Shown here: piece after piece, positions 8,361-57,856 of the stretch
How the letters are laid out: each line of letters begins with the position of its first letter
Position numbering within the stretch: the first letter of the stretch is position 1
NCBI GenBank assembly: GCA_963799845.1
Contig: CAWCYI010000007.1
Span: forward strand, 153,617 to 217,616
Direction of reading: 5' to 3'
Length of the DNA: 64,000 nt
Source: an uncultured Nitrososphaerota archaeon
GTDB lineage: Archaea; Thermoproteota; Nitrososphaeria; Nitrososphaerales; CADDZS01
The notes under the pieces: model-generated
The model's database searches: none
What the model saw: only the letters and a program-made list of their open reading frames with translations
Told to the model about the DNA's origin: nothing
Position numbers and translations under genes: made by a program

Positions 8361-9094
8361 ATGAAAAGCTCAAAGGCGCTCGTCATTATCTTGGTAGTTT
8401 TGATTTCGATTCTTGCCCCGACTTCTCTGGGTTATTTGATCGGGGCTCAACAGACACCAGTTTTCCAAAAGGCCGTCGTCGCATTGAACTAGACAACTAC
8501 CGTCTCGGTTACTGTTACCCCTAGTTCAAATCAAGAGTTCACAAACACGAGTTCGATACCAATCCAGCCCGACCCATTCGAGTTTTGGACAGTATTCGGA
8601 GCAAGTTCGAGTACTTGGTATGTTCCAATTGTTTTCCTTGGGGCTGGTTCGATTTCTCAACTTTACGTTAACTATGAGTGCGAGGTCCCCTGCACTTCTA
8701 ATAATTCGTCAATTGCGTCCTTCCATCTAAAGTCGGTGATTCCTCAAGCTTTCTTGTTGAATGAAAACGGTAATGTCACCATAACGTCTGATTTGACATT
8801 CAACACAACCAGAGTCTTAGATCTTCAAAAACCTCTGAGACAATATTGTATGAACTCTTAATTGCGAATTCAAGTAGCGGCTATTACACATTCAATCTAC
8901 CTTATGGAAGTTCGGTCGAACCGATCCTTTATGTGAAGAGTGGTTCCGCAGGTCTCGATTCCAATCTACTCCGAAAGTGGCTGGGAAATGTTGCACAGGG
9001 CGATGCTGCATGTTCGGACGAAGTACAGGTGACAATTTTAGGGTTTACGAATACGTATTATACAGAAATTCCTCTTAAAGTACCCAGCTCATAA
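8361..9094 (+). pseudogene. secreted or membrane-anchored Ser/Thr-rich protein, disrupted (TAG at 8490; one base missing near the A-run at 8827-8831)
   Basis: MKSSKALVIILVVLISILAP signal-like start; frame stays open after the TAG; several N-x-S/T sequons; joins ORF 8846-9094. Lesions could be sequencing errors. Confidence 0.6.
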
Positions 9095-9164
9095 TTTCTC
9101 ATTCAAATATTGACTTCCGAGTTATTCTCTCTTTGTCGAGTCGCAAGATGTTTTAGAGAGAATA

Positions 9165-9998
9165 ATGAAGAAAGCCGTTAAGATGATTTCAATAGCGATT
9201 CCTGATTCAATGTTTCTTGAGGATGATACTTTGCGTGAAAAAACCGTGAAAGTCGGGCTAGTCGCTCGTTCAGCGGCGATATTCGGAATCGAACGGATTT
9301 ACATTTACCGAGATTCAACTCGAAACAACGAATCTGATTATGAGGTTGCGAAGACCATTTTCGAATATGCCGAAACTCCTCAATATTTGCGGAAGAGAGT
9401 TTTCGGCCGCCGAAAGGAGCTCGAATATGCCGGCCTCTTGCCGCCGTTGAGGATTCCATCTCATGTGATAGAATCTTACCCTGAAGCCAACCAGACCAGG
9501 GAGTCTGTGATAGTCCTTCAAAATGGCGAGCTAATGGCAGATGTCGGAGCCAATGGACTTGCTATGATTGAAGGAAGAGTTCACGAAGGACAAAGAGTGA
9601 CTGTGAGAATCATATCTGTCGATCCTTTGGTTGTCCGTGTTCAGGAGAGACCCTTGGACAAGTACTGGGGTTACGAATTGAGACGGGCGCCTTCTTTAGC
9701 TCGATTTCTGAAGAGCGCGAACTTTGAGCTAACTATACTCACATCTCGACTTGGCGTTAGCGTTGATAAAATATGGAAGGAATTTTGCGAAAGATCCGCT
9801 TCCGCTCCCAGAATTCTGGTGTGCTTCGGATCTCCGGAGGCAGGGGTCGACAAAATGTTGAAGCAGGATAAAGCGAAGGTTGCAGATTTTCCATCCATGT
9901 ATCTCAACACTTTTCCTGGGCAGAATGCTGAAACGATTAGATTGGAAGAAGCTGTATTCGGGTCACTTAGCATTCTGAATTTGGCAATTCATCTATGA
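9165..9998 (+). CDS. SPOUT-class RNA methyltransferase (MTH1/C9orf114-like)
   Basis: ETPQYLRK, GLLPPLR, FPGQNAETIRLEEA; usual position upstream of rpl3. Confidence 0.9.
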   Translation: MKKAVKMISIAIPDSMFLEDDTLREKTVKVGLVARSAAIFGIERIYIYRDSTRNNESDYEVAKTIFEYAETPQYLRKRVFGRRKELEYAGLLPPLRIPSHVIESYPEANQTRESVIVLQNGELMADVGANGLAMIEGRVHEGQRVTVRIISVDPLVVRVQERPLDKYWGYELRRAPSLARFLKSANFELTILTSRLGVSVDKIWKEFCERSASAPRILVCFGSPEAGVDKMLKQDKAKVADFPSMYLNTFPGQNAETIRLEEAVFGSLSILNLAIHL

Positions 9999-10128
9999 CG
10001 TCACTACTATAGAAATGCCAAGGTTTTGAAGAATCTGAGCCCTTGTCAAACAAATCAAAAATATGCACGTGATCGCTAAAGGTTTAAAAACGATAATTGA
10101 CGCGTGTGTGCAGTACGGCGTTTTACGG

Positions 10129-11184
10129 ATGGGTCATCGTAAGCATAGTAGTCCTAGGCGAGGCTCTCTTGCTTTTGCACCGAGAGCTCGGCATCAAGTC
10201 CTCCTTCCCAGAATAAGGAATTGGACTACCAGAGGAGTTGACAAGCCTACCCTTGCTGGATTTCCGGTATTCAAAGTGGGAATGGTTCAGATCGTTACGC
10301 TAGACGACCGGGAAAAAACTCCAAATTTTGGCAAGCCCACGTTTAATCCTGCTACTGTTTTGTCTGCACCCGCGGTTACTGTTTACGGATTTAGAGCATA
10401 TGGTCGCAAGAATGGAATAGATTTTGCATTAATCGACGTTTTCGCGAACAATCTTCCGAAGGAAATCCAAGAAAGAGTTTCGTTTATGATAGACTCGAAG
10501 GACACTACATCTTTTGATGTTTCCTTGAAAAAGGTTGAGGAGCTTCTTGGAGAAGTCCTGAATTTTACCGCAATTGTTGGGGTTATTCCGAGCGAGACTG
10601 GGTTGTCTAATGGCAACCCTCAGATTCAGGAAATGGGAGTGATCGGCGGGAACGTTAAATCACAGTTTGAATACTTGAAGGAGATTATTGGCCAAGCCGT
10701 AAAACCGGGGGATTACTTCAAAGCTGGGGCTTATCTTGACACGATCGCGATCACAAAGGGGAAGGGCTTTGAGGGAGTCATCACTAGATTCGGAGTCACT
10801 CGAAAACAGCATAAATCAAGGAAAACAGTTCGCGAGGTCGGAGTAATCAGCCCTTGGCATCCTGCTACGGTAATGTACACGGTGCCACGAGCGGGTCAGA
10901 TGGGTTTCCACCAGCGTATCGACAAGAATAAGAGAATTCTTGTTGTTTCAAATGCTCAGCAAAACCCAATTACTCCTTCTGGTGGGTTCCCACATTTTGG
11001 TGAGGTGAGAGGAGATTACGTTATTGTCCGTGGTTCTGTCCCTGGACCAATCAAAAGGCTGATTGATTTGAGATTGCCCCTTTACCCACGAAGACAAAAA
11101 GTGCAGGCCCCCAGAATAGTGGAAATTAATGTTGCAGGGAGAGCAATGCCTCTTGTATCTGCATCAGCCTCTCAACAAAAGTAG
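10129..11184 (+). CDS. rpl3: 50S ribosomal protein L3
   Basis: MGHRKHSSPRRGSL start; TKGKGFEG; GQMGFHQR. Confidence 0.97.
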   Translation: MGHRKHSSPRRGSLAFAPRARHQVLLPRIRNWTTRGVDKPTLAGFPVFKVGMVQIVTLDDREKTPNFGKPTFNPATVLSAPAVTVYGFRAYGRKNGIDFALIDVFANNLPKEIQERVSFMIDSKDTTSFDVSLKKVEELLGEVLNFTAIVGVIPSETGLSNGNPQIQEMGVIGGNVKSQFEYLKEIIGQAVKPGDYFKAGAYLDTIAITKGKGFEGVITRFGVTRKQHKSRKTVREVGVISPWHPATVMYTVPRAGQMGFHQRIDKNKRILVVSNAQQNPITPSGGFPHFGEVRGDYVIVRGSVPGPIKRLIDLRLPLYPRRQKVQAPRIVEINVAGRAMPLVSASASQQK

Positions 11185-11196
11185 TGAGATTGGAGA

Positions 11197-11988
11197 ATGG
11201 AAGCAAAGATTTTGAATCTTGAAGGTCAGGAAGTAGAGTCGCTCAATCTTCCTTCTGTTTTTAGTACTCCTCTGAGGGAAGATGTTATCAATCGTGTTTT
11301 TGTCGCCTTGACTTCTCATAATAAGCAGCCGCAAGGAAGAGATCCTCTTGCTGGTGAGAGAACTTCAGCTGAATCAGGTCACCCACCCACGGGACGAGGG
11401 ATTTCAAGGATTCCCAGAGTGAAAGGCGAGAGATATTCAAAGTCAGGCATGGCGGGGGCTGTCGCTAGTACGGTTCACGGTAGGATGCCTCATCCTCCTA
11501 GGTCGGAGAAAGTTATCAGGAAGGAAATAAATGAAAAGGAAAGATATCTTGCCCTTGCCTCGGCGATAGCTGCGACTACAAATCAAGTGATAGTCGAGAA
11601 AAGAGGGCACAAATTTTCATCAATGCTTCCAATTATTGTTTCGAACGACTTTGAAAACATAGTCAAGGTCCGCGAACTCAAAAAGTTCTTTGTTACTGTC
11701 GGGGCGGACAAGGACTTGGAAAGAGCTAGCAACCGAAAAAAGAAAGTTACCAGTTCTCTTTCCAAGAGAGCGAGAAGCGGAGTAGGTCCGCTGCTGGTCG
11801 TCTCCAAGAACTCTAAATTGAGGGACATTGCGAAATCGGTTGAAGGGCTAACTGTTGCGATTAGTTCGAACTTGTCCGTTCTAGATCTTGCTCCCGGCTC
11901 AATCCCTGGAAGATTAACGATTTGGACTAAGGATTCGCTAGATGGAATATCGAAGAACGTATCGAATCTGAGTGGTAATTCATCTTGA
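11197..11988 (+). CDS. rpl4: 50S ribosomal protein L4
   Basis: TSAES...TGRGISRIPR; LAPGSIPGRLTIWT. Confidence 0.97.
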   Translation: MEAKILNLEGQEVESLNLPSVFSTPLREDVINRVFVALTSHNKQPQGRDPLAGERTSAESGHPPTGRGISRIPRVKGERYSKSGMAGAVASTVHGRMPHPPRSEKVIRKEINEKERYLALASAIAATTNQVIVEKRGHKFSSMLPIIVSNDFENIVKVRELKKFFVTVGADKDLERASNRKKKVTSSLSKRARSGVGPLLVVSKNSKLRDIAKSVEGLTVAISSNLSVLDLAPGSIPGRLTIWTKDSLDGISKNVSNLSGNSS

Positions 11989-12251
11989 ATCCCGAAGACG
12001 CCCTAAAAGTCGTATTTAGACCATACGTGACTGAAAAAACTTTCGACCTGATCGAAAGACAAAACAAGATATGTTTTCTGGTCGAGATCAAGTCGTCTAA
12101 GAAAAAGATCAAAAGTGCGATTGAGACTTTGTACCAAGTAAAGGTTGCCAGTGTCAACACTGCAATAACGATCGTAGGCAAGAAGGCGTTCGTTCGCCTC
12201 GCGCCTGAAAGCTCAGCGACAGATCTTGCGTCCAAACTAGGATTGGTGTAA
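11985..12251 (+). CDS. rpl23: 50S ribosomal protein L23
   Basis: PYVTEK, KKAFVRL; gene order. Confidence 0.96.
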   Translation: MNPEDALKVVFRPYVTEKTFDLIERQNKICFLVEIKSSKKKIKSAIETLYQVKVASVNTAITIVGKKAFVRLAPESSATDLASKLGLV

Positions 12252-12256
12252 AATGA

Positions 12257-12997
12257 ATGGGTAAGCGAATTTTAGTTAGACACCGGGGCAAGGGCGGTCT
12301 GCAATACAGATCTCCACAGGTAGGCAAGTTTGCAAAGGTGAGGTATCCGTTTGTCCCCGAAGGTCAGACTACTGAGATGAAGATATTGGATATCGTGCAT
12401 GAGCGAGGGAGGGCTTATCCGCTCGCTGAGCTTGATTATTCTGGAAAGAGGTTCTACATCCCTGCGGTTTCGGGCACTGTTGTCGGAACCCAAATTCAGA
12501 TAGGCCCTCTAGCCAGTGTTGAGTCAGGTAACATTCTTCCGCTAGCAAATATTCCAGAGGGAACCGCTATTTGCAACATTGAGAGGTACCTAGGCGACGG
12601 TGGTCGATTGGTTAGACAGGCAGGAGAATCAGCTGTACTTTTCGCAAATACCGCTCAGGGCTCTACAATAAGGATGCCATCTGGTCGGACTGCTTTTCTT
12701 TCTCCAAAATGCCGCGCTTCGATCGGCATAGTGAGCGGGGGGGGTCGAGTGGAGAAGCCATTCCTGCGCGCTGGTGCTAAATTCCACCTCATGAAGTCGA
12801 AAGGAAAGATGTATCCGAGAATGAGAGGAATCGCCATGGCTGCAGTTTATCATCCGTTTGGAGGAGGGAGGCACCAGCATCCAGGCAAGTCTACTTCAAC
12901 TTCACGAAATGCTCCACCGGGGAGAAAAGTTGGAAACATTGCTCCAAGGAAGACTGGAAGAAAGAGAATAGTTAGGGCTGAGGATAGACAGGAGTAG
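12257..12997 (+). CDS. rpl2: 50S ribosomal protein L2
   Basis: [15 protein letters not shown]; PPGRKVG. Confidence 0.97.
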
Positions 12998-13005
12998 ATT
13001 ATCTA

Positions 13006-13401
13006 ATGCCGAGAGAATTCAAGTACCGCGGATATTCTTTAGAGCAGTTGCAGGGGATGTCGTTCGAGTCGTTTCTGGGATTGCTTCCATCGCGACAGAG
13101 AAGATCTTTGAATAGAGGCATATCAGACGAGAAAAAGAAGTTAATTGAGGAGACTAGGCTCGCGAAAGATGGTAAGATCAAGAATCCTATCAGGACTCAT
13201 GCTAGGGACATGGTAATTCTTCCTTACATGGTGGGGTTGAGTATTCACGTTCACTCGGGGAAGGAGTTCGTTGCACTCGAAATTAAACCCGAAATGGTTG
13301 GCCGATATTTGGGAGAATTTGTGATCACCAACAAGAAAGTAGTACATGGCACTCCAGGCATTGGGGCATCAAGGTCGAGTCTATACGTGCCGCTAAAGTA
13401 A
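13006..13401 (+). CDS. rps19: 30S ribosomal protein S19
   Basis: [11 protein letters not shown]; YLGEF. Confidence 0.97.
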
Positions 13402-13500
13402 AACGAGGGAATTGTAGATAGAACAGGTCCGTCAATGGTTTGTCACAGTAAGGTATTTATCCCATTCAATAGGAAGTTCCTTTTCTACCACAAGTGTTAG

Positions 13501-13968
13501 TTGCGATTGCCGCTTTTCAGGTATGCCTTTCAGAGTTATGACCCTCTTCAACACATTAAAGCTTCGGGAAGAGAGGTAGATGTTTCTCCGAAGACTGCTA
13601 GGGAGGTTTGTAAGGCGATAAAGGGAATGTTCCTAAGAGATGCGAAGGAGTACCTTGAAGCTGTAAAAGAAAAAGAGGCGGCAGTGCCTTTTAGGCGCTT
13701 CAAAAGGGGCGGAGCGCACAGGTCGGAAATTAATGGGTTTCATGCGGGAGGATACCCGATAAAGGCTGCATCGAAAGTCCTTGACGTTTTGAACAATCTA
13801 GAAGCGAATGCAGAGTTTAAGGGTCGTGATTTGGATCGAATGAAAATTATTCATGCTAGTGCTGCGAGGGGAAGAATTATTCGGGCCTACACTCCCCGGG
13901 CTCAGGGTAGGTCATCGCCTTCGTTCAACACTTTGGTTCATATTGAATTGGTAGCGACAGAGGCTTAG
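13501..13968 (+). CDS. rpl22: 50S ribosomal protein L22
   Basis: PRAQGRS, HIELV; gene order. Confidence 0.96.
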   Translation: MRLPLFRYAFQSYDPLQHIKASGREVDVSPKTAREVCKAIKGMFLRDAKEYLEAVKEKEAAVPFRRFKRGGAHRSEINGFHAGGYPIKAASKVLDVLNNLEANAEFKGRDLDRMKIIHASAARGRIIRAYTPRAQGRSSPSFNTLVHIELVATEA

Positions 13969-13972
13969 ATTC

Positions 13973-14746
13973 ATGTCAACTACAACAATAACGACAACGA
14001 AGAAAGTTCTCAACAAGTTTGAACGAAATGCGGAAATCGATGAGTTTTTGGAAAAATCTTTGACCGAAGCTGGTTATGGTGGTGTTGACATCACGACTTC
14101 CCCGGTGGGAACGAGAATCACCCTTTTCGTACAGAGACCTGGCCTAGTTATCGGGCGGAGAGGTATGGGGATTCGTGATTTAACTGAAAAACTGGAGAAA
14201 AAGTTCGGTCTTCCGAATCCTCAGATATCAGTGGTCGAAGAGGAAGTCCCAGAGCTCAATCCTAGAATAATGTGTTCTCGCATAGCGCAGACTGTTGTGC
14301 GTGGGACTGCGTTTAGGCGGGCTGCTTTATGGGCGATGAATTCAATGATGAACGCCGGCGCCCTGGGAGTTGAAATTACTATTTCCGGCAAGTTGAGGAG
14401 TGAGCGAGCTCACTTTGAAAAGTATGTGTCAGGAGTAGTGCCGAAAAGCGGCGAGACCGCTGACAGGATCGTCCGCAGAGCGACAACAGATGTTCTTCTT
14501 AAAATGGGATTGTACGGTGTGAAAGTGAATATTGCGATAAAGAACTCGATTGCTCCGGATGTTGAATTAATAGAGCCCACTGTGTCACCAATCGCTTCGG
14601 AATCGACTTCCGAGGAAAAACCAGCCGACCAGACGGCTCAGCAGGAGCAACTTCAGCAAAAGGAAGGTTCGGCCCCCAAATCCTCTCGACGAAGTTCGAC
14701 GAGCAAGAAGGAGTCAAAGAAAGGAAATGAAACGCCTCAAAACTGA
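13973..14746 (+). CDS. rps3: 30S ribosomal protein S3
   Basis: KH domain RPGLVIGRRG; ISGKLRSERA. Confidence 0.97.
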   Translation: MSTTTITTTKKVLNKFERNAEIDEFLEKSLTEAGYGGVDITTSPVGTRITLFVQRPGLVIGRRGMGIRDLTEKLEKKFGLPNPQISVVEEEVPELNPRIMCSRIAQTVVRGTAFRRAALWAMNSMMNAGALGVEITISGKLRSERAHFEKYVSGVVPKSGETADRIVRRATTDVLLKMGLYGVKVNIAIKNSIAPDVELIEPTVSPIASESTSEEKPADQTAQQEQLQQKEGSAPKSSRRSSTSKKESKKGNETPQN

Positions 14747-14981
14747 AGAGTTATCCAAACTATCAGATTCAGATCTGGTAAAACGTCTTAATGATTTGAG
14801 ATCTGAGCTCTCCAGACTAAGGTCCAGTGCGGCCCGCGGTACTCTGAAGAAGGAGCTAGGAGAAATTAAGACTGTACGTAGAAACATTGCCAGGATTCTC
14901 ACCGCGATGAACGCTAAGAAGTCGGCTCTCAAGATTGTGACTACTAAGAGAGCCACTCCTACAGTGGCGGAGAAAAGCTAG
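14727..14981 (+). CDS. rpl29: 50S ribosomal protein L29
   Basis: IKTVRRNIARILT. Confidence 0.95.
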   Translation: MKRLKTEELSKLSDSDLVKRLNDLRSELSRLRSSAARGTLKKELGEIKTVRRNIARILTAMNAKKSALKIVTTKRATPTVAEKS

Positions 14982-15005
14982 TTCCGAAAATCTAGGTGAA
15001 TTGAT

Positions 15006-15254
15006 TTGTATTCAGGAATGCTAATCGGAAGGGAAATAGAAGTGTTGGCTTCTCGAGACAAGACTATGCTAAAGTTGAGAGGTCTGGTTGTTAACGAGAC
15101 GAAGAACTTGCTAGTTGTGATGACTCCGGAAGAGAGACAAGTGAATATCCCAAAGTCGATCGTGACTATCGGTATCTCGTCCAAGAATTCTGAAAAGCTG
15201 ATAATCGAAGGCTCAAAGTTGGTCGGAACTCCGGCTGATAGGATAAAGGGTTAG
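15006..15254 (+). CDS. rnp1: RNase P protein component 1 (Rpp29/Pop4)
   Basis: LIG...GLVVNETKN...IPK...IEGSKLVGTPADRIK; position between rpl29 and rps17. Confidence 0.9.
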   Translation: MYSGMLIGREIEVLASRDKTMLKLRGLVVNETKNLLVVMTPEERQVNIPKSIVTIGISSKNSEKLIIEGSKLVGTPADRIKG

Positions 15255-15263
15255 AGCAATAAA

Positions 15264-15623
15264 ATGTCAGAAGCAAGGAGCATTGGTCTCGCTGTGAAGC
15301 CGCCGGCCAGGCCGTGCGAAGATCCGAACTGTCCATTCCACGGTACTCTGCGAATCAGGGGGAAGCTCTTGACCGGAAAAGTTGTTAGCGTCTCAGCGAA
15401 GAACATGGCTGTGGTTCAGAGAGAGTCAACTCAGTTTAACAAAAAGTACCTGCGATATTTGAAAAAGAGACACAAGCTTCACGCACATCTTTCTCCCTGC
15501 CTTGATCTCAAACCCGGCGACACGGCGACAGTTGCGGAGTGTAGGCCCGTCTCTAAGACAGTTTCGTTTGTCGTCGTAGATCGCATTAGTGCGGGAACTT
15601 CAACTTCGGCGGGCGCAAAGTAG
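15264..15623 (+). CDS. rps17: 30S ribosomal protein S17
   Basis: CEDPNCPFHG; ECRPVSKT. Confidence 0.97.
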   Translation: MSEARSIGLAVKPPARPCEDPNCPFHGTLRIRGKLLTGKVVSVSAKNMAVVQRESTQFNKKYLRYLKKRHKLHAHLSPCLDLKPGDTATVAECRPVSKTVSFVVVDRISAGTSTSAGAK

Positions 15624-15639
15624 GGAGACCTGATTTAGA

Positions 15640-16074
15640 TTGTCGACGAAATCAAGAGCAGTCTCAGCGAAGGGCGTTTCCGAATTCAAACTGTACATTA
15701 CAAGATCAATCCCGAATAATGCGATTATCACTTGTGCGGATAACACTGGAGCGAAGACTCTGCGCGTAGTAAACGTGACCCGCTATCACGGTAGATGGGG
15801 CCGGATTCCATCGGCGTCAGTCGGAGACCACATTACGGTTGTTGTAAAGCGCGGCCCTCCTGAGCTTAGAAAACAAACATTCGGAGCTGTGATCATTCGA
15901 CAAAAGTATCCGGTGAGGAGGGTCAGTGGCCAGCGGATCATGTTTGAGGACAATGCAGCGGTGATAATTACTCCTGAGGGAGATCTGAAAGGAACCGACA
16001 TCAAAGGTCCGGTCGCCGCCGAGGCCGCAGAGAGATGGCCGAGAATCGCTAACCTTGCAACAATGATTGTTTAA
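15640..16074 (+). CDS. rpl14: 50S ribosomal protein L14
   Basis: CADNTGAK; FEDNAAV. Confidence 0.97.
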   Translation: MSTKSRAVSAKGVSEFKLYITRSIPNNAIITCADNTGAKTLRVVNVTRYHGRWGRIPSASVGDHITVVVKRGPPELRKQTFGAVIIRQKYPVRRVSGQRIMFEDNAAVIITPEGDLKGTDIKGPVAAEAAERWPRIANLATMIV

Positions 16075-46784: not shown

Positions 46785-46793
46785 AACAGTTAT
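46785..46793 (+). repeat. candidate attL core AACAGTTAT
   Basis: Identical 9-mer at 57848-57856; lies 50 bp upstream of the integrase. Confidence 0.45.
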
Positions 46794-46843: not shown

Positions 46844-47914
46844 ATGAAAGAGGACATTCAGGACTATACCGGAACCGTTCAGTTATTCCTAGAAAGTAGA
46901 AAGACGGAAGCCACTAAGCGATTTTACACAAAGGGATTAGAGGTAACAACACAAGCAGATCCAGCCAATTTCTTGAAGCTGGCGAAAGAGAATAAGCTCC
47001 AGGGCGAAGCTGCTCTAATCCACTGGGTTCAAAAAAACAGAACCGGACTAAAACATTCTACGTTGACCGGTTATCTCGCGGGATTGAAAAGTTTGTGTGA
47101 TTATGCGGACGTCCTTTTGAATTGGAAAAAGGTCAGGAGCTGCGTCCCTGATGGAGCGAGTGGTAAGGATCGGCCGCCTTATCTGAAAGAGATTAGGGCT
47201 TTGTATCAGTCTTTAACGCTCCGGGACCGGTTCGGCGTCTCTTATTTTGTCTCGACCGGCGCACGTCTCGCTTCGATAGACTTTTTGAAAATGAAAGATA
47301 TAGAGGAATTTCCCAAGCTCGGGATCGCTGCGGTTCGGATCTATCGAGGCGAAGCAGAGGAATATTTTTCTTTCCTTAACTCTGAGGCATTAGAGGATTT
47401 TCACAACTATGTAGATTATAGAAAGCGAGCTGGCGAGATTATCGCCGGTGAAAGTCCCGTGTTCCGTACTTCATTCAATCACGCATTACCGAAAAAGGTT
47501 AAGGCTGCAACATCGGACGCGGTTAAGAGGGTTATTCAGGTAGGTTGGGAGAAACTCGGCTTAAAGGAGCGTGAATTTGCGGAGATTCACGGCTTTAGAT
47601 CTTATTTCAAAACTCAGCTAGAAAATGAATCTGCCCTAAAGACTTCTCAAATTGAAAGGTTGATGGGACACGGAGTTTCAAAAGTCGAGAACCGATATTA
47701 CAAACCGGAAGTTGAAAAGCTCGGCGCTTTGTATGCTCAGAATCAATCTTGCCTTTTCATATCTGAGGGGATGATTGGCAGGGGCACGATTGCCGCACTT
47801 GAAGAGGAAAAAGACTCGAAGATTTCTAAACTCGAATCTGAGGTTTCGGAATTGAAGGCAGGACTAGCGGAGATATTGAGACTCAGAAAAGAGGAATTGA
47901 ATAAAACGAAATAA
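46844..47914 (+). CDS. tyrosine recombinase/integrase, catalytically intact
   Basis: STGAR (R), IHGFR (HxxR), LMGH, NRYY (Y); C-terminal coiled coil. Confidence 0.93.
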   Translation: MKEDIQDYTGTVQLFLESRKTEATKRFYTKGLEVTTQADPANFLKLAKENKLQGEAALIHWVQKNRTGLKHSTLTGYLAGLKSLCDYADVLLNWKKVRSCVPDGASGKDRPPYLKEIRALYQSLTLRDRFGVSYFVSTGARLASIDFLKMKDIEEFPKLGIAAVRIYRGEAEEYFSFLNSEALEDFHNYVDYRKRAGEIIAGESPVFRTSFNHALPKKVKAATSDAVKRVIQVGWEKLGLKEREFAEIHGFRSYFKTQLENESALKTSQIERLMGHGVSKVENRYYKPEVEKLGALYAQNQSCLFISEGMIGRGTIAALEEEKDSKISKLESEVSELKAGLAEILRLRKEELNKTK

Positions 47915-47945: not shown

Positions 47946-48515
47946 CTAAGAATCAGTAACAAATGTTACCGATTCTTTCTTCTTTGTTGGAGATACCATT
48001 GAAGCGCTGATTTGTCTGGCAGCGCTTAGATAGGCTTGTCTTATTTGCTTCGCAACCTTAGGATGCCTTTTCAAAGTCTCAAAGAAGATTGTGCTATCTT
48101 CAGTATCATAATTGAAAAATGGAGATTCGCGTTTGTATCTTCTGAGAACGTATTTCATGATCTTTGATTTTGAAAGCCGAGGCACAAAATCAAGAATGAA
48201 ATCAACTCGGAAATCTGAAATCCCTTCATCGATTAAAGTTGCTTTGAGCAAGTCAACATTAAAGCCAGAACCAATAGCAAGACTAAAACCATCGGTATCC
48301 AGCCAGTACAGTTCGTATTTCGTTCCTTCTTTAAGTCCGACCTTTTTTATCCAATTTCTATTTAGCATCGTCTCGAAATTTGTATGAACATTCTTGTAAT
48401 CTGCGCTAACTTGCTTGGCCGTACTGTACATAGTATCCGGCCCTTTATTCGCCAGATGAAGGATAATTTTTTCTTGAAGAGGCGGGATATGGTAGTCTTC
48501 GCTAAATTGTGCCAT
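47946..48515 (-). CDS. winged-helix transcriptional regulator
   Basis: QEKIILHLANKGPDTMYSTAKQVSADYKNVH...L...WI...YWLDTDG; start taken at MAQF. Confidence 0.7.
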   Translation of the reverse strand: MAQFSEDYHIPPLQEKIILHLANKGPDTMYSTAKQVSADYKNVHTNFETMLNRNWIKKVGLKEGTKYELYWLDTDGFSLAIGSGFNVDLLKATLIDEGISDFRVDFILDFVPRLSKSKIMKYVLRRYKRESPFFNYDTEDSTIFFETLKRHPKVAKQIRQAYLSAARQISASMVSPTKKKESVTFVTDS

Positions 48516-48529
48516 ATGGTTAAGTCGGG

Positions 48530-48576
48530 TATGGTAATATCCTACCATAATTATAAGGCTGTATCAAACGTTGATA
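48530..48576. promoter_or_regulatory. divergent promoter/operator: palindromic TTATAA flanked by two inverted repeats
   Basis: TATGGTA-N6-TACCATA (48530-48549), TTATAA (48551-48556), TATCAA-ACG-TTGATA (48562-48576). Confidence 0.6.
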
Positions 48577-49124: not shown

Positions 49125-49498
49125 ATCCAGAACCAAAGACTCAGGAAATTACTTTCACGCTGGACGAATGGCTCGCGTGTGTATGGATTGATTTTATTCA
49201 TGTTGAGAGAGTGTACGATCCGGTATTTCGTTATAGGCTGAATTGCTCCGATCGTTCAACGATGTTCATTAGGGCAAGTTATTCGCTATTTCGAGAATTC
49301 CCACAAGTCACGCAGAAAGAACGGATTGATTTCCGTACAAAGTGGGACGGATTCTATGAGGCTAATCAGGAACGAATAGCAGGATTAGCGCGAGACTTGA
49401 ACACAAAGAAGCATGCCGAGATGTCTAAGCTTCTTTCGGAGATCAAAGAACAGATGCGAATTTCACAAGAGGTAATCAAAGTAGATGCCAAATGGTGA
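49109..49498 (+). CDS. hypothetical protein
   Basis: Overlaps the helicase start; no primase motif recognised. Confidence 0.6.
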   Translation: MDYCMNPEPKTQEITFTLDEWLACVWIDFIHVERVYDPVFRYRLNCSDRSTMFIRASYSLFREFPQVTQKERIDFRTKWDGFYEANQERIAGLARDLNTKKHAEMSKLLSEIKEQMRISQEVIKVDAKW

Positions 49499-50999
49499 AG
49501 AGTCAAAACTCCTGGCGTGGAATACCGCTAAGGAATTGCTGGAGAATAACCATTTTGTTACTCTTCGAGACACCGAAGAGATCTTTCGATATGAGGATGG
49601 AATTTACACACCGGACGGTCAAGCATACATTAAACAAAAAATGCAGGAGAATTTTGAGACAAAGGAAGAGATCAACAGCCATTTAGTCCACGAAGTTATA
49701 GGCCATGTTCAACGGTCAACTTTGAAAGACCGCACTATCTTTGAAGAGAATAACCCGCACTTAGTCTTAGAAAATTGCCTTTTCAACGTTGACACTTTTC
49801 AAAAAGAGGATTTCACACCGGATTATTACGCCTTAGCGAAGATGCCCGTAAAATTTGAACCTGAAAGGGATTATCACAATTCGCTTTTTTGGACGTTCAT
49901 TAATGAGATCCTCGACCCGAAGGACGTTATTGGAGTTCAAGAAGAGTTAGGCGCGATTCTGAGAAAGAAGTACCTTACAAAGAAATTCTCAATCTATTAC
50001 GGAGAGACGGATACCGGGAAAAGCACTTTGTTAAACGTGATTCAAGCTTTGATAGGTCAAAAGAATATTTCTAATTTATCGCTCCAACAGATCGCCTCTC
50101 AAGAGAGATTTTATCTCGCCAGTCTTTTCGGAAAAATGCTGAATTGCCGGGACGATATGCCGAAGGACATAATCAGAAGCGCCGGCCCTTTGAAAGAGGT
50201 AACTGGACGCTCGCGAATAACGGGAGAGAAAAAATTTCAGAATCCCTTTGAATTCGTAAATCACGCTTACATCTTGGTTAGTTGTAATGAGTTACCGCCC
50301 TTTTCTGAGGACGATCTCGCGGTATTCAATAGAATCAAGCTGCGAGCATTCAAAAAGAGATATGGAGGTCACACCGAGCCGGATCGGGAATTAGAAGAGA
50401 AGCTAACACAGCCGGACGAGCTGAGCGCTATTTTGAATTGGGGCCTAGAAGGATTAGACCGGCTCAGACAGAACGGATGGAATTTCTCAAACGGAGAGAA
50501 TGAAATCGTTATCCGGGAATTGTACAAGAGGAAAAGCGATCCGCTCTGGGGTTTCTGCGAGGATTGCATAGAAGAAACCGGCGAGGATCAGGATATTATC
50601 GAAAAAGAAGAGCTGTATAATTCTTTCAAAGCCTATTGTAAAAGTAAGGAATTGAGCGATCAAGGTAAGGATTACTTTTACAAACATATCCACGATAAGG
50701 TCACGGTGAAATCAGGGCAGCCGCTAATCAATGGTAAAAGACCGCATTGTTTCATTGGAATTAAACTAAAGTCGAACATAAATGGAAAAAGCCCTGTTCA
50801 CGGTGTTCCATCAGAAAATATGGAACAGGGTGAACAGGGTCAAGCCCATTTAACTGCAACTTTGACCGATATTTTCACAAAGCTAGACTCTGATAAGATC
50901 GAATTCGCCCAGTGTGAATTCTGCGGAGAGAATCGCGAGCTAGCCTTTTGGAATCAAGATCGACGTTATGCTTGCCGACAGTGTGCTAATGGAGAATGA
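49485..50999 (+). CDS. D5-like (P4-family) SF3 helicase with C-terminal Cys4
   Basis: D5_N-like LENCLFNV...FTPDYY; Walker A GETDTGKST; GKMLNCRDD; SCNELP; ILNWGLEG; CEFC...CRQC. Confidence 0.9.
   Translation: MPNGEESKLLAWNTAKELLENNHFVTLRDTEEIFRYEDGIYTPDGQAYIKQKMQENFETKEEINSHLVHEVIGHVQRSTLKDRTIFEENNPHLVLENCLFNVDTFQKEDFTPDYYALAKMPVKFEPERDYHNSLFWTFINEILDPKDVIGVQEELGAILRKKYLTKKFSIYYGETDTGKSTLLNVIQALIGQKNISNLSLQQIASQERFYLASLFGKMLNCRDDMPKDIIRSAGPLKEVTGRSRITGEKKFQNPFEFVNHAYILVSCNELPPFSEDDLAVFNRIKLRAFKKRYGGHTEPDRELEEKLTQPDELSAILNWGLEGLDRLRQNGWNFSNGENEIVIRELYKRKSDPLWGFCEDCIEETGEDQDIIEKEELYNSFKAYCKSKELSDQGKDYFYKHIHDKVTVKSGQPLINGKRPHCFIGIKLKSNINGKSPVHGVPSENMEQGEQGQAHLTATLTDIFTKLDSDKIEFAQCEFCGENRELAFWNQDRRYACRQCANGE
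50792..50839. repeat. 20-bp inverted repeat (18/20 match) inside the helicase gene; candidate origin
   Basis: CCCTGTTCACGGTGTTCCAT-N8-ATGGAACAGGGTGAACAGGG. Confidence 0.7.
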
Positions 51000-52240: not shown

Positions 52241-52939
52241 TTGAGCAATATTCCCGAAGATACAAAAGAAAAGGCAGAGATGGATCAGCTAATCTCCGAC
52301 GCAACTCGACCGTCAAAAAATTCGGCAGCGACCCTTTCATTAAGTACAGAAATCATAATCGGATTATACTCTTCAAGTCCCCTGCAAAAAATCAGGCATA
52401 TCCTAGAAGCATATCAGACTTTGACAAGGGAAGATAAGGAAAAGATAATTCCAAAAGAGAGCAATCGAAAATATATGGTAAAAATGAGGGAGCTTTGTTA
52501 TTCCTTTATGGATATGTTCGATCTGCCGCCTCTTCCGTATCAATTTCACAATCGAAAAGGGCTAACATTTTCTTTTAGCGCAGATTTAGCTTATCTGTAT
52601 CTTGCCCCCTTTGTTGGCGATTTTTATTTTTACGGCGAGTGGACAGAGGAAAATAAGAAAGCCATAGAAGATGTTATGAACAAATTTTGGCAAGAGGGAG
52701 CAAACTTAGAGTTGATGAATGAGTACGAGATCAAAGTAATTAAAATTCTCTTTCGACATTTAGTAAAAAATCTTGAATTCGGGGTTAACGCTGAAGAGGC
52801 GCTAAAGTTCAAGAATCAATACGTCGATTTTATGATTCCCTGGGTATCCTATATCGCAACAAAAATTCAAAAGGAACTAATCGACGGTACGACGTGGGAA
52901 AAGGCAGCCGCCATTTACAATCAGGGTAAGCAGAAATGA
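52241..52939 (+). CDS. hypothetical protein, translationally coupled to the ATPase
   Basis: 232 aa; ATGA overlap at 52936. Confidence 0.7.
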   Translation: MSNIPEDTKEKAEMDQLISDATRPSKNSAATLSLSTEIIIGLYSSSPLQKIRHILEAYQTLTREDKEKIIPKESNRKYMVKMRELCYSFMDMFDLPPLPYQFHNRKGLTFSFSADLAYLYLAPFVGDFYFYGEWTEENKKAIEDVMNKFWQEGANLELMNEYEIKVIKILFRHLVKNLEFGVNAEEALKFKNQYVDFMIPWVSYIATKIQKELIDGTTWEKAAAIYNQGKQK

Positions 52940-53907
52940 GCATACAAGAAGCTCCGACAGTTCCCGTTAAGCCGGCGTCAATTCGCGTCTTATGGATGAA
53001 GGCGCAGCATGAAGAAATTGATTTTGATACACCGATGAGGGTCGGCGTTTCAGGAGTAATTCAGAGCGGAAAATCTGTTTGGCTAGAGTGCTTTGGCGAA
53101 AATGGATTAAGTCGAGGTCACAACATCCTAGATCTTTTTGGCTCGCCGGTATCAGAAAATTTGGGCTGGCTGCGAAGTCCCTGGATTATCAATCACAAAC
53201 TTTCAGTCCTGCTAATCAAGGGAAATGCAGAGGTAACTTTCAACGGTCCACGCTGGCCGTGCAAGCACTATAAGGATCTCAGGTTAGAGGACATAGAAAA
53301 TACTCGGCTTGTCTTAAGCGTGGCTAGTTTTTACAATACTAGACGCGAAGAGGTTAATGCCGACAAAGAAATCATGCAGTTATTCGAGCGTCGAATAGGA
53401 TTTAATCGGCTCGTCTTTGTTTTGGTTCGCGAGGCGAGTTATCTCGTTTACAGTAGGTCAAAAGTTATCGAAGGCGTCGAGGGTTCAAAAATGGAGGGAC
53501 TAGATCTTATTCGGCAAAGTGGACATTGGGGCCTCAGTCTAGGATTAGATTCTCAAAGACCGATCGCGGTCGACAAAGAAATCAGAGATTTATTCTCGCA
53601 AAGGGTTTTTCGCTCGATGGGTCAAATGGCAGAAGAGCTCCCGGACTGGATCTACGGATACGTTCGGCCGGAGTGGGTTCAAAAGATGAAGCTCGGGCAG
53701 TTCTTGATTCTGTCGAATTCCGGTAACATTGGAATCGGCAGAACGTCTTATCCTCTATGGCATAAGGGACGAAAAGAGAATTTGCTCAGAGTGTTTGGAA
53801 TAGACGTGAAATATCACAACGTACCCAAGAGGGAGAGACGCAAAAAGGGAAAAGATGATTCCGGCGAAGATCCTGGGGATAATTTCAGGATCATATCGGA
53901 TAAATAG
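52936..53907 (+). CDS. FtsK/HerA/A32-like P-loop ATPase (putative packaging or translocation)
   Basis: Walker A GVIQSGKS; variant Walker B FVLVREA; IRQSGHWGLSLGLDSQRP resembles the RxGRH...QRP signature. Confidence 0.72.
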   Translation: MSIQEAPTVPVKPASIRVLWMKAQHEEIDFDTPMRVGVSGVIQSGKSVWLECFGENGLSRGHNILDLFGSPVSENLGWLRSPWIINHKLSVLLIKGNAEVTFNGPRWPCKHYKDLRLEDIENTRLVLSVASFYNTRREEVNADKEIMQLFERRIGFNRLVFVLVREASYLVYSRSKVIEGVEGSKMEGLDLIRQSGHWGLSLGLDSQRPIAVDKEIRDLFSQRVFRSMGQMAEELPDWIYGYVRPEWVQKMKLGQFLILSNSGNIGIGRTSYPLWHKGRKENLLRVFGIDVKYHNVPKRERRKKGKDDSGEDPGDNFRIISDK

Positions 53908-54090
53908 CGCTAGGAATTTTCGCGGTTCAAAATTCAATCTAAATAGCTTAAACAAACAAACATAAGGGAAAATTGGTTAGAGTTGGCAAAAATTGATTTC
54001 TCCGATTTTGCTTTTTCTTTTGCTTCTGCCCTAGCTTTGTTTAAGACTCTAGGAGCGTTAGAGAAAGTGGATAGAAGAGAGACGGGGTAA

Positions 54091-55135
54091 ATGGCTCAAA
54101 TCATACAAAGTCAGCAGGCCCCGGCGGATCTCTCAAAACTCAATCAAGAGACTAGCGATCTTTTGACGAAAAACCCTAGCTTAAACAAGCTACTTTCTAG
54201 CGGCCTCAGTCCGATAACTTGCGGGATGTATGCGGTCCACGTTGCGAATTTCTGCGCCTACATGAAAATGCCAATAGAGCAAACAATCAAAAGTTACTAT
54301 GATTGGAGCGCGATCGTTTCAGATTATCTAATCTCCATTGAAAGAACCAAGAAGCTCCGGACCCGGCGTATTATTCTCAGCGCGCTAAACAAATGGTTCG
54401 CAGTTAACAACGTCCACGTGTTTGATAAAGTCTCGAAACCGCTCGGAAGCCTGGCGCCGCGAGCTTATCCTATCCTGAGCAAGCAGCAATTAACCGAGAT
54501 GATTCTGTACTGTGATCTACCTTCTAAGGTCGTGCTTGCTATTGGAGTGACTAGCGCCTTATCTGCCTCACAAATAGCGGGACTCAGACTAAAGGACGTG
54601 GATCTCTCTCTTGAAATTCCAATGATTCGATCAAAAGAATATAGGACGTTCATCACGCCGGAAGCTCGCCGGATCGTTGAGGCGTTCATTCGATTACGCA
54701 AGCATAGAGGCGAGACGATCACGCCGGAGAGTTTCATTCTAGGACCGCATGAAACATTTTACCGAGCCGTAGATTTCAGATTTCACAATGCGCTAGAAAG
54801 TGCAGGGATTGAAGGCTTTCAATTTGCAGCATTGAAGGACTATTTCCGATCATGGAGTAAAGTCGCGGGACTGGATCCGTTGATGATTCAATATTTCTGC
54901 GGCCAGAAGCTTAGGGGTAACAACACACAAAGACACACCCGACACCGAGCTTTTAGTTGAATATGAGAAACTGATTCCGACTCTAACATTTTTCAAGACT
55001 GATGCAAAGTCCGAGATGTTCAAAGAGAGAATTCACAAACTAGAATCAAAATTAGAGATCTCCCAGGACGAAACTAAGGATTGGAAATCTCGTTATCAGG
55101 AATTGAAGAGGACTATTCGAGGCAAGAAACTTTGA
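54091..55135 (+). CDS. second tyrosine-recombinase-fold protein, catalytic residues lost (apparent extra base at ~54912)
   Basis: TSALSASQIAGLRLKDV, TFITPEA, RGETITPES, FAALKDYF, FCGQ; +1 frame continues to a coiled coil and TGA at 55133-55135. Confidence 0.78.
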
Positions 55136-55326
55136 CTTATGAGAGAATAGATCCGATCATAGTAAGGCGCTTTTTGCGCGATATGTTCATTCAAGACGGT
55201 TACGATGAGAAACTGGTCAACGAGTACCTAGAAACGCCTGATATTATCGAATTCATCAATCTCCTAGTTAGACAGATCGAACGTGGAGAGGTCCCGAATT
55301 TCAAACCAAAGGGGTTTCATCCTTAA
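55132..55326 (+). CDS. hypothetical protein
   Basis: TTGA overlap with the restored stop of the previous gene (MTYERIDP...). Confidence 0.55.
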   Translation: MTYERIDPIIVRRFLRDMFIQDGYDEKLVNEYLETPDIIEFINLLVRQIERGEVPNFKPKGFHP

Positions 55327-55622
55327 TGAATTGCTGCCGTTGCCGCTCGAAAATGGACTATATGAGTGAGAGATCGAATCCTAGAGCTAAGAAGCTTTGT
55401 TTCTACTGTCCAAAATGTAAGGCGTTCCGGTTCACCTTTGAGTTTCAATCGAAGGATATCTTGACGATCATGCTCGATTCAATCAATCCGGCAGATATCC
55501 TACCGTCAGAGTTCGCAAAAGAGGAAAAGCCAGTTAGTCAAAAACAGATATCTCCTCATGTCACGAGCGGGGATATTATCGAGACTCCCACCTTACAAGC
55601 TAGCGGAATATCTCAACGATGA
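55326..55622 (+). CDS. Zn-ribbon protein
   Basis: CCRC...FYCPKC. Confidence 0.6.
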   Translation: MNCCRCRSKMDYMSERSNPRAKKLCFYCPKCKAFRFTFEFQSKDILTIMLDSINPADILPSEFAKEEKPVSQKQISPHVTSGDIIETPTLQASGISQR

Positions 55623-55646
55623 TATCCACGCTTGAGGTCTTGAAAA

Positions 55647-55772
55647 TTGGATTGCGAGATATGCGGCTTTGAATTGCTAGACGTGGAAATATTCGGATTA
55701 GCTCGCCACGTATGCCCGACAGTCCCGGGAGAAAAACCTAGTATGATATGGATTGACGATCGGAAAGAATAA
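55647..55772 (+). CDS. small Zn-finger protein (41 aa)
   Basis: Manual translation MDCEICGFELL...RHVCP. Confidence 0.45.
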   Translation: MDCEICGFELLDVEIFGLARHVCPTVPGEKPSMIWIDDRKE

Positions 55773-55804
55773 TTCCGAGTTCTAACTTTGATTGATTGAT
55801 AGAA

Positions 55805-56266
55805 ATGTCAGCAGTACAAGGATTCTATACAAAAGACGGTAAGAAAAGGCCGATAACTGAAAAGAAAGGGCGCTTTGGTCGAAGGAGATACAAAGTCCCG
55901 GAGAAAGTCAAAGAGGAAGAAAAGAAGGTCGAGAAGGAAGAGGAAAAGCTCGACGAAGACAAAGAGAAGCTCGACAAAGAGGAAGTCAAAGACGAGCGAA
56001 AAGAAGAGAAAAAGGGAGAGAGACGAGAAGATGATCCGAGCGGCCCTATCAAGATCGAACATCCCGGCTCTTTAGAAGGTTGGGAACACGGCCAGGACGA
56101 AGAGACACGCCACAATCATATCAAAGAATCGTACAAAGTGAACGGAAAAGCCGAGACAGAGAAAAAGCTCGCAGCTCTTGAAGTCTTAGATCAGAATCGA
56201 GCGCCGGAAGTGGCTAGGGCAGCACACCAGGACTTAGAATGGTTCAAGAGAGATTATCCGACTTAG
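55805..56266 (+). CDS. charged protein: GFY...PIT motif, K/E tract and helical C-terminal domain
   Basis: GFYTKDGKKRPIT; GSLEGW...RH...KLAAL...DLEWF. Confidence 0.7.
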   Translation: MSAVQGFYTKDGKKRPITEKKGRFGRRRYKVPEKVKEEEKKVEKEEEKLDEDKEKLDKEEVKDERKEEKKGERREDDPSGPIKIEHPGSLEGWEHGQDEETRHNHIKESYKVNGKAETEKKLAALEVLDQNRAPEVARAAHQDLEWFKRDYPT

Positions 56267-56281
56267 AGCCGGTTTTTCTTT

Positions 56282-56833
56282 TTGGCTCGCCGGCGTTCCT
56301 ACTACATAGATGAACGCGGTTATCACCGTCCCGCGCCGGCGATCGGATTTTATCGGGAAAATGGAATAGTTCACCCGATAACTCAATCCGGCGTACATGT
56401 GCGCACGCGGAAATATGCTCCGAGAACTTACAAACAATCTAACAAGCACGGGCCTAGACCGATATCTCCCGTTGCCCGATCGAAATATCACGAGTGGCAT
56501 AATGAGTTTGAAAGAAAAAAGATGCAGGGAGAGAAGCCTAAAGCTCTACCAATAGGAGCTTTTGATTCTTATTACCGGTCCCGAAAGGCAGCATACGAAG
56601 CAACCGGCGGATCTGCTACTAGCTTCGATGATCAATTCGACAAAATAGATACCGCTCAAGCCGTCGATAGTTGGAGCGATCTTGATTCTGAATTGAAATC
56701 GAATGATATCTACGCTTCAAGGGATGATATCGCAGAGATTAGACGAAAGGCCCGGGACGAACAACGAGAAGAGAGAGAGATCGAGCGCTCATATCGTCAA
56801 TACGTTAAGGAGCAAAGAGCAAATGCAGCCTAG
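56282..56833 (+). CDS. basic protein with GFY...PIT motif
   Basis: GFYRENGIVHPIT; Arg-rich N-terminus. Confidence 0.7.
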   Translation: MARRRSYYIDERGYHRPAPAIGFYRENGIVHPITQSGVHVRTRKYAPRTYKQSNKHGPRPISPVARSKYHEWHNEFERKKMQGEKPKALPIGAFDSYYRSRKAAYEATGGSATSFDDQFDKIDTAQAVDSWSDLDSELKSNDIYASRDDIAEIRRKARDEQREEREIERSYRQYVKEQRANAA

Positions 56834-57847: not shown

Positions 57848-57856
57848 AACAGTTAT
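57848..57856 (+). repeat. candidate attR core AACAGTTAT
   Basis: Identical to 46785-46793; overlaps the probable sdhA TATA box (TTATAAA). Confidence 0.45.

Follow-up and report, generated by a model that had tools for sequence, protein, structure and literature searches.

The locus

The window (the whole stretch of 64,000 nucleotides that was analysed) holds an integrated element with an active integrase gene close to one end and, further inward, a gene for a dead tyrosine-recombinase homologue, here called P0100. The main features of the element, given by position and strand, are the following.

46785-46793 (+): attL core AACAGTTAT, matched by an empty site in genome G003
46844-47914 (+): element integrase P0002, 356 aa, which retains R141, H249, R252, H276 and Y285; some 50 bp inside attL
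49485-50999 (+): D5-like primase/SF3 helicase (DUF5906, 6e-19; Pox_D5; phrog_864, 3e-69)
52241-53907 (+): genes for a 232-aa protein and for a 323-aa protein with a GKS P-loop, shortly before the P0100 gene and common to the sister element in genome G278
54091-55135 (+): dead tyrosine-recombinase homologue gene (P0100), delimited from frames, homologues and fold; 347 aa once one T is removed
54911-54912 (+): TT, the apparent frameshift; the contigs of two public runs show only one T here
55132-55622 (+): two small ORFs, of 64 aa (start TTG at 55132) and 98 aa (with paired CxxC), each start overlapping the stop codon before it (TTGA, TAATG)
57848-57856 (+): attR core AACAGTTAT, matched by the same empty site

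With ORFs called under translation table 11, the P0100 gene appears in the window as an ORF of 289 aa (54091-54960, +) that is continued in the +1 frame, which is open from 54887 to 55135 and closes with a TGA at 55133-55135. The gene follows a 183-bp spacer and heads a run of tightly abutting ORFs, its TGA overlapping a candidate in-frame TTG start (55132-55134) of the next one; for the 64-aa and 98-aa ORFs on its 3' side no family match was found. The protein consists of an N-terminal core-binding-like domain (approximately aa 28-115), a catalytic-fold domain (approximately 128-292), a PxLT motif (296-299) and a long C-terminal helix (305-346). Its N-terminal start MAQ is common to the homologues P0004, P0006 and P0007. 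Compared with the Pfam family PF00589 (Phage_integrase) P0100 scores E 0.0026 and 18 bits, below the 27.1-bit cut-off, as does the active P0002 (E 1.8e-5, 25 bits).

The apparent frameshift

Contigs of four public runs were compared with positions 54000-55700. Run X2 lacks coverage of the site and run X4 gave no match. The contig of X1 (soil, 54639-54928) and that of X3 (peat, a separate study, 54824-54978) both have one letter fewer at 54911 and are identical to the window in the rest; the depth of both is low (3.5 and 3.9, respectively). Since X1 may be the sample behind the window assembly, X3 is the clearly independent witness of an intact allele. The preliminary description, which was made from the sequence alone, had treated the window sequence as frameshifted, and this does not hold for either contig. 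The reading frame that it had restored (GQKLGVTTHKD) is the very one obtained when one T of 54911-54912 is removed, which gives ...FCGQKLGVTTHKD... and a product of 347 aa; the restored segment aligns without gaps to the intact P0004 and P0005, including their conserved Gly. As the contigs from two runs of two studies lack the extra T, we take the gene to be intact. A disabling frameshift that is real in the organism was not encountered, the extra T being present in the window only and absent from X1 and X3. In our view the shift is either an error of the assembly or a minor allele, and the gene does occur intact in nature.

A direct similarity of 30 nt (77%, with an exact core of 12 nt) connects 46937-46966, in the N-terminal coding region of the active integrase, to 54911-54940, at the apparent frameshift site, and the two are in the same frame (LEVTT and LGVTT). 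As a recombination junction or a split-integrase att pair it was rejected: about one such match per 16 kb is estimated to arise by chance, the homologues show no break in collinearity there, and the real att cores are at other positions. We judged the similarity to be chance, although the coincidence of place is odd.

Catalytic residues, scaffold and fold

The catalytic positions of P0100 were read from an alignment with 14 active relatives and the integrase at 46844. At the position of Arg-I P0100 has S158 (SALS versus TGAR in the integrase), His-II and Arg-II of the HxxR motif are A246 and K249 (AALK versus HGFR), and His-III is Q272 (FCGQ versus LMGH). The column of the Tyr nucleophile holds H279 or K280, depending on the alignment, as the two differ by one position. 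The first Tyr in any frame from 54887-54960 onward is Y291, so the loss of the Tyr does not depend on where the shift lies. Thus the replacements read in the preliminary description were confirmed, whereas its caveat that the Tyr call hinged on the frameshift position has lapsed. All five residues examined (Arg-I, His-II, Arg-II, His-III and Tyr) are replaced, which is not the profile of an active tyrosine recombinase. The beta2-beta3 hairpin, the site of the catalytic Lys in the active relatives, is some 10 residues shorter than theirs, and K182 may or may not be the counterpart of that Lys. The scaffold motifs that were said to be retained are indeed present and match the consensus of the active proteins: LKDxDL, TFxTPEA, RGExITPES and PxLT are kept, together with the C-terminal helix.

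An AlphaFold2 model built from a 75-row alignment reached a pLDDT of 93.6 and a pTM of 0.79 (single-sequence AlphaFold2 of the 289-aa ORF gave a pLDDT of only 34) and presents the C-terminal region as a single long helix (305-346). The best structural matches over both domains in a Foldseek comparison with the PDB were XerA (E 3e-9), Cre, VchIntIA (TM 0.56), XerH and lambda Int, at probability 1.00, with E-values from 3e-9 to 1e-4 and alignments of 280-364 columns, i.e. both domains. The query-normalised TM-scores to these proteins range from 0.39 to 0.56 and the identities from 12 to 17%. They are active enzymes that have the catalytic pentad and lack the long C-terminal helix, whereas in P0100 the reverse is true. 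Descent from the superfamily is supported both by sequence similarity (phmmer) and by the two-domain fold (AlphaFold2 and Foldseek). Two copies of P0004, a natural homologue used instead of P0100, were also co-folded and scored 0.20 against a mark of 0.42, which speaks neither for nor against their association.

Conservation of the catalytic loss

An exhaustive phmmer search over 1.84 billion protein representatives (E<=1e-3) yielded 96 non-self matches to P0100. All were aligned and their catalytic columns, defined on the active relative P0008, were read. R-H-R-H-Y is complete in 56 of these, 14 are fragments or gapped but canonical where residues are present, 16 carry one substitution, 2 are ambiguous, and the remaining 8 have lost at least three positions. 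The five best matches (P0004, P0005, P0006, P0007 and P0011; E 1e-74 to 5e-18) are all among those 8, the other three (P0032, P0039 and P0074) being weak matches. The five are intact proteins of 231-352 aa with 28-44% identity to P0100. In P0006, P0007 and P0011 the beta-hairpin and the whole His-III/Tyr segment have been deleted; what these three retain is both domains, the proline of PxLT and the C-terminal helix. In the long-form members, also three in number, H279 is conserved. The six dead proteins have 26 invariant columns in common, and their mean pairwise identity is 0.39 in the N-terminal (CB) domain and 0.42 in the catalytic-fold domain, compared with 0.33 and 0.41 in 14 active relatives.

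Deviations at the catalytic columns were also seen among more distant matches, namely P0032, P0039, P0074, P0033, P0040, P0063 and P0072 (KSRKT, RYE-S, KKRIY; four have a Ser at Arg-I). They may represent other recombinase-like proteins that lost their activity independently, or artefacts of the alignment.

A maximum-likelihood tree was made from 28 rows taken from the top matches, without the more distant matches and without P0002, P0035 and P0036, which have long branches. In this tree the six dead proteins group in a single clade with 100/100 support; its stem measures 1.26 changes per column, and the end branches (0.49-1.06) are comparable to the median of 0.73 for all rows. When rooted on a second active group, the clade is nested within the active P0008-type group. 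A quick 40-row tree that includes P0002 agrees and places P0002 in a distant, separate clade. The pattern suggests a single burst of change, after which purifying selection would have been normal.

The dead family is rare. It consists of six singleton clusters; the source of one member, P0011, labels it a Thaumarchaeota/Nitrososphaerota MAG protein. P0005 is encoded on a contig of 457 kb and P0007 on one of 7.8 kb. A profile of the dead clade retrieved only active-type matches (approximately 400 aa), and no member of the clade, from 401 order-level genomes, 97 genomes of set f9 and 238 genomes of set f15, the last with nothing at E<=1e-30; the genome sets include the unpublished G001 and G259, from which no conclusion is drawn. 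Pattern searches for loci of dead homologues gave 257 matches in metagenome contigs, 9 in genome contigs and 95 in viral contigs, none of which was confirmed. Likewise, tblastn against 50,697 phage records gave no match, and in a word-index protein search P0100 itself was the sole match.

The alignment of homologues, a check that had been set beforehand, shows the catalytic loss to be conserved, the closest five being without R-HxxR-H-Y. Considering the losses in the homologues together with the intact frame, the conservation and the single clade, a targeted and conserved loss of catalysis with the scaffold kept is supported. The interpretation in the preliminary description is thereby borne out in part, and the roles that it had suggested (DNA-binding regulator, directionality factor, dominant-negative inhibitor of the integrase) are candidates. 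Neutral decay does not seem to describe these data: the frame is intact in the contigs of two studies, five homologues are intact, conservation resembles that of active proteins and the clade is well supported. P0100 is a real, intact and conserved pseudo-integrase in an archaeal element.

The element and its integrase

The extent of the element follows from the empty site in G003, a genome of the same genus in which the flanks are joined on one contig. This contig matches 43900-46796 and 57847-59209 of the window at 82% identity, with an overlap of 13 nt, and the window contains two exact copies of the 9-bp core AACAGTTAT and no others. From one core to the other the element is 11,063 bp long, and it lies between a host gene and sdhA; its GC content is 0.40-0.47, against approximately 0.50-0.52 outside. 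Att sites as short as 8 bp have been reported for thaumarchaeal elements (a passage of PMC8371274, citing PMC6563490). Candidate 10-bp flank repeats in the window and in G278 were at chance level.

The preliminary description had placed P0100 beside an active paralog. The integrase P0002 does look active, but it is not close: the two proteins are 19% identical in the multiple alignment (BLASTP E 0.077), fall in different clades, and the P0002 gene is located 6.2 kb upstream. Judged by their sequences, P0100 is not a recent copy of P0002 and descends from a different integrase lineage. Three more relatives of P0002 (34%, 32% and 27% identity) are encoded by the source genome G000, at C6:146003-147064 (with one in-frame TAG), C4:1973313-1974242 and C8:6619-7500.

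Besides the primase/helicase and the two genes upstream of P0100, the element carries several small zinc-ribbon ORFs. It may be virus-derived; no capsid gene was recognised among the element genes scanned. The gene of the 323-aa protein occupies 52936-53907, and its language-model look-alikes are found among viral HerA/FtsK/DUF87 ATPase clusters, a lead only. A 200-aa protein encoded at 47946-48548 (-), divergent from the integrase gene, gave a borderline match to the HVO_A0114 winged-helix family (E 4e-6, 26.9 bits against a cut-off of 27.6 bits). At 55796-56833 there are two strongly basic ORFs (156 and 183 aa), rich in Lys and Glu, with a repeat of 21-nt periodicity (55909-56014), and the 'RPITEKKG'-like N-terminal motif of the 156-aa ORF recurs in an 86-aa ORF beside the integrase of G278.

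The sister element and the ancestry of P0100

Homologues of the 323-aa protein were found in nine other genomes when 401 order-level genomes were searched. In one of these, G278, the gene order is SF3 helicase (36% identity), homologue of the 232-aa protein, homologue of the 323-aa protein (39%), a small ORF and a convergent gene for a 399-aa integrase; ordinary metabolic genes flank the locus. Among the active relatives of the dead clade the best is P0008, in which R-H-R-H-Y is kept, and the 399-aa integrase is the identical protein. This sister element (L066, G278:C1 approximately 8800-15800) spans some 7 kb between genes for a FixC-like oxidoreductase and an acyl-CoA dehydrogenase and also carries a 354-aa ORF (-) and the 86-aa ORF; a 10-bp repeat at 8674/15797 is at chance level.

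Apart from the dead clade itself, the relatives nearest to P0100 are the P0008-type integrases, with 24-28% identity along the whole protein; P0008 has a phmmer E of 4e-23. They have the same two-domain layout, the LKDxDL, TFxTPEA, RGExITPES and PALT motifs and the C-terminal helix, and in the sister element the same neighbouring genes. Unlike the dead clade they have retained R-H-R-H-Y and the longer beta-hairpin, and act as sole integrase at the end of the element; the dead proteins are approximately 50 aa shorter and sit on a long stem branch. The G278 locus with its P0008 gene implies that in sister elements the sole integrase is of the P0008 type. The simplest history would then be that one integrase was replaced by another, after which the old one was exapted.

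A motif cluster at the gene start

The motif CTTAAACAA occurs in 4 copies in the 64 kb, against 0.59 expected, and three of these lie within 242 bp at the start of the P0100 gene.

53947-53955 (+): CTTAAACAA, copy 1, within the spacer of 183 bp that precedes the P0100 gene
54037-54045 (-): CTTAAACAA, copy 2, inverted, 46 bp upstream of the ATG
54180-54188 (+): CTTAAACAA, copy 3, in the 5' coding region, within a 16-nt inverted repeat

The inverted repeat reads TAGCTT-AAAC-AAGCTA (54177-54192). In approximately 349 kb of sequence examined, these two hexamers stand in inverted arrangement no more than 10 nt apart at just one further place, 40 nt upstream of the P0008 gene of G278.

The latter palindrome, AAGCTATAGCTT, 40 nt upstream of the start of the G278 integrase, is a post hoc observation at one locus, and an inverted TAGCTT-type pair was not found at the other P0008-type loci examined. 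As a lead from these sequences, the P0008-type lineage might recognise TAGCTT-type half-sites. Extension of the motif to 14 nt with 3 mismatches was rejected as being at chance level (10 found versus 9.8 expected). The 200-aa winged-helix protein may be an alternative candidate for binding the CTTAAACAA motifs.

Possible roles of P0100

Very probably P0100 is a dead protein that is under selection for a non-catalytic role. As the family is conserved despite the loss of catalysis, its reuse as a DNA-binding protein is probable. A plausible course of events is that the element came to rely on the other integrase, after which the old one would have lost its chemistry and kept its two-domain DNA clamp. 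In our preferred reading P0100 would be a non-catalytic, site-specific DNA-binding and bending protein of the element, which may oligomerise through the retained PxLT tail and the C-terminal helix. Its binding at the motif cluster would either control the tightly packed operon that P0100 heads or mark a relic attachment region. As its target we tentatively propose the three CTTAAACAA/TAGCTT inverted-repeat motifs at the promoter and 5' end of its own gene; against this it must be said that the motif could serve another protein of the element (the winged-helix protein of 47946-48548) or be promoter sequence. The explanation as a whole, an exapted dead integrase that binds DNA at its own motif cluster, is the best we have, with the chances of its being right and wrong about evenly balanced. 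In order of preference, the control of its own operon or of a relic att region would come before an accessory, directionality or inhibitory function for the integrase, which would precede a decoy against P0008-type rivals and, finally, a recognition function for the ATPase.

Alternatively, P0100 could be an accessory subunit of the integrase at 46844, acting on attL and attR or on attP as an architectural, directionality or dominant-negative partner that times excision. The proteins are encoded in the same element and both have the C-terminal module (consensus EYxKAxPxLT plus helix) that is found in both integrase clades. For the characterised archaeal integrases no directionality factor is known according to a passage of the review PMC8371274, which also describes IntSNJ2 as being modulated by two small proteins, and the role is therefore open as far as that text goes. 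Nevertheless, with only 19% identity, membership of different clades and genes that lie 6.2 kb from each other and do not form a co-oriented module, we consider such a partnership rather unlikely. In a wider sense P0100 might be a dedicated, non-cutting regulator of recombination, i.e. a directionality factor or anti-integrase with a recombinase fold, directed at its own integrase or against rivals. This is doubtful. If true, it would be the first such archaeal regulator, since the characterised archaeal integrases need no such factor as described in part of PMC8371274, and it would represent a new route from integrase through pseudo-integrase to the control of recombination.

A role as decoy, by which P0100 would recognise the att sites of P0008-type integrases, block or poison their recombination and so exclude rival elements, agrees with its descent from the P0008-type lineage and not from the element's own integrase. 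Moreover, P0008-type elements share replication genes with this element and would on that account be its competitors. However, a P0008-type integrase was not found in the window's own genome (86.7% complete), and the idea appears improbable to us. Harder still to credit is P0100 as the DNA-recognition factor of the neighbouring P-loop ATPase, for instance in packaging or partition of the element DNA. It is true that the P0100 gene follows that of the 323-aa ATPase-like protein, that an integrase gene adjoins the homologue in the sister element too, and that the 323-aa protein resembles the viral HerA/FtsK/DUF87 clusters (a lead only); but the neighbour in G278 is an active integrase that is encoded on the opposite strand and lies at the end of the element, where integrases are usually found, and no capsid gene was recognised.

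That P0100 is a pseudogene, the decaying remnant of a former integrase without function, is very improbable: the shift in the window sequence, the loss of every catalytic residue examined and the rarity of the family are in line with it, whereas the frameshift is missing from the contigs of two studies, the five homologues are intact at 28-44% identity, conservation is on a par with that of active integrases and the losses are concentrated on the catalytic apparatus while the scaffold motifs stay. A residual recombinase or nicking activity through non-canonical residues, such as the His279 shared by the long-form members, is hardly conceivable with all five positions changed and with three of the six members lacking the whole His/Tyr segment and the beta-hairpin.

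Significance and relation to known systems

Pseudoenzymes derived from tyrosine recombinases are rarely documented, and here a whole two-domain protein has very probably been kept under selection after the complete loss of its active site. The path can be traced from the active integrase of the sister element via the dead copy described here to the trimmed copies in three relatives, which makes up a natural series for the role of the recombinase scaffold without its chemistry, i.e. in DNA clamping, bending and synapsis. P0100 also is a concrete candidate for the missing accessory or directionality control of archaeal integration. Annotation pipelines would call the gene 'integrase' or, in this assembly, a pseudogene, and both are wrong.

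The nearest functional precedent that we found in print is TnsF of the Tn6022-like Tn7 elements. Faure et al. 2023 (PMC10293859) describe it as a protein that selects Tn7 targets, that stems from the active Tsy TnsF and whose tyrosine-recombinase domain has been inactivated. Both TnsF and P0100 are proteins of mobile elements with such an inactivated domain, which in TnsF, according to these authors, is reused for DNA recognition. TnsF as described there is bacterial, has N-terminal zinc fingers and tandem CB domains but no catalytic chamber, and acts on comM together with the Tn7 machinery. In comparison with this description P0100 is archaeal, with one CB and one catalytic-fold domain and no N-terminal Cys/His clusters. 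Among the ten neighbouring genes scanned no match was named as a Tn7 component, the only matches being of helicase, winged-helix and weak HNH type, and P0100 does not have the character of a TnsF-like target selector.

Integrase-derived, non-functional-looking genes of integrated archaeal elements are also known in the form of the 'suicidal' SSV-type Int(N) and Int(C), which PMC8371274 and PMC7253208 describe as the two halves of a single active gene that is divided at the att site. P0100 differs from such fragments in being full length and internal, with the att cores 7.3 and 2.7 kb away, and in having its residues substituted instead of separated. It is collinear with its intact homologues and not a fragment of a split integrase. 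Directionality factors of the Xis/Cox type are proteins of approximately 55-120 aa with a winged-helix or HTH fold. With 347 aa and a recombinase fold P0100 is not of that type, which bears on its membership and not on a possible directionality action.

In eukaryotes, genes that stem from the Crypton tyrosine-recombinase transposons have been reused as DNA-binding factors. The ALOG domain, described in part of PMC3537659, is a recombinase derivative that was likewise reused as a DNA-binding factor, with only the N-terminal domain kept. In contrast to P0100, which belongs to an element, the Crypton-derived and ALOG genes are eukaryotic host genes. In the open-access literature searched, which included the survey of thaumarchaeal elements and the review of archaeal recombinases, main texts as far as they were available and supplements (which may contain such genes) aside, archaeal inactive tyrosine recombinases were not met with; TnsF and exaptations at the level of domains were the only cases.
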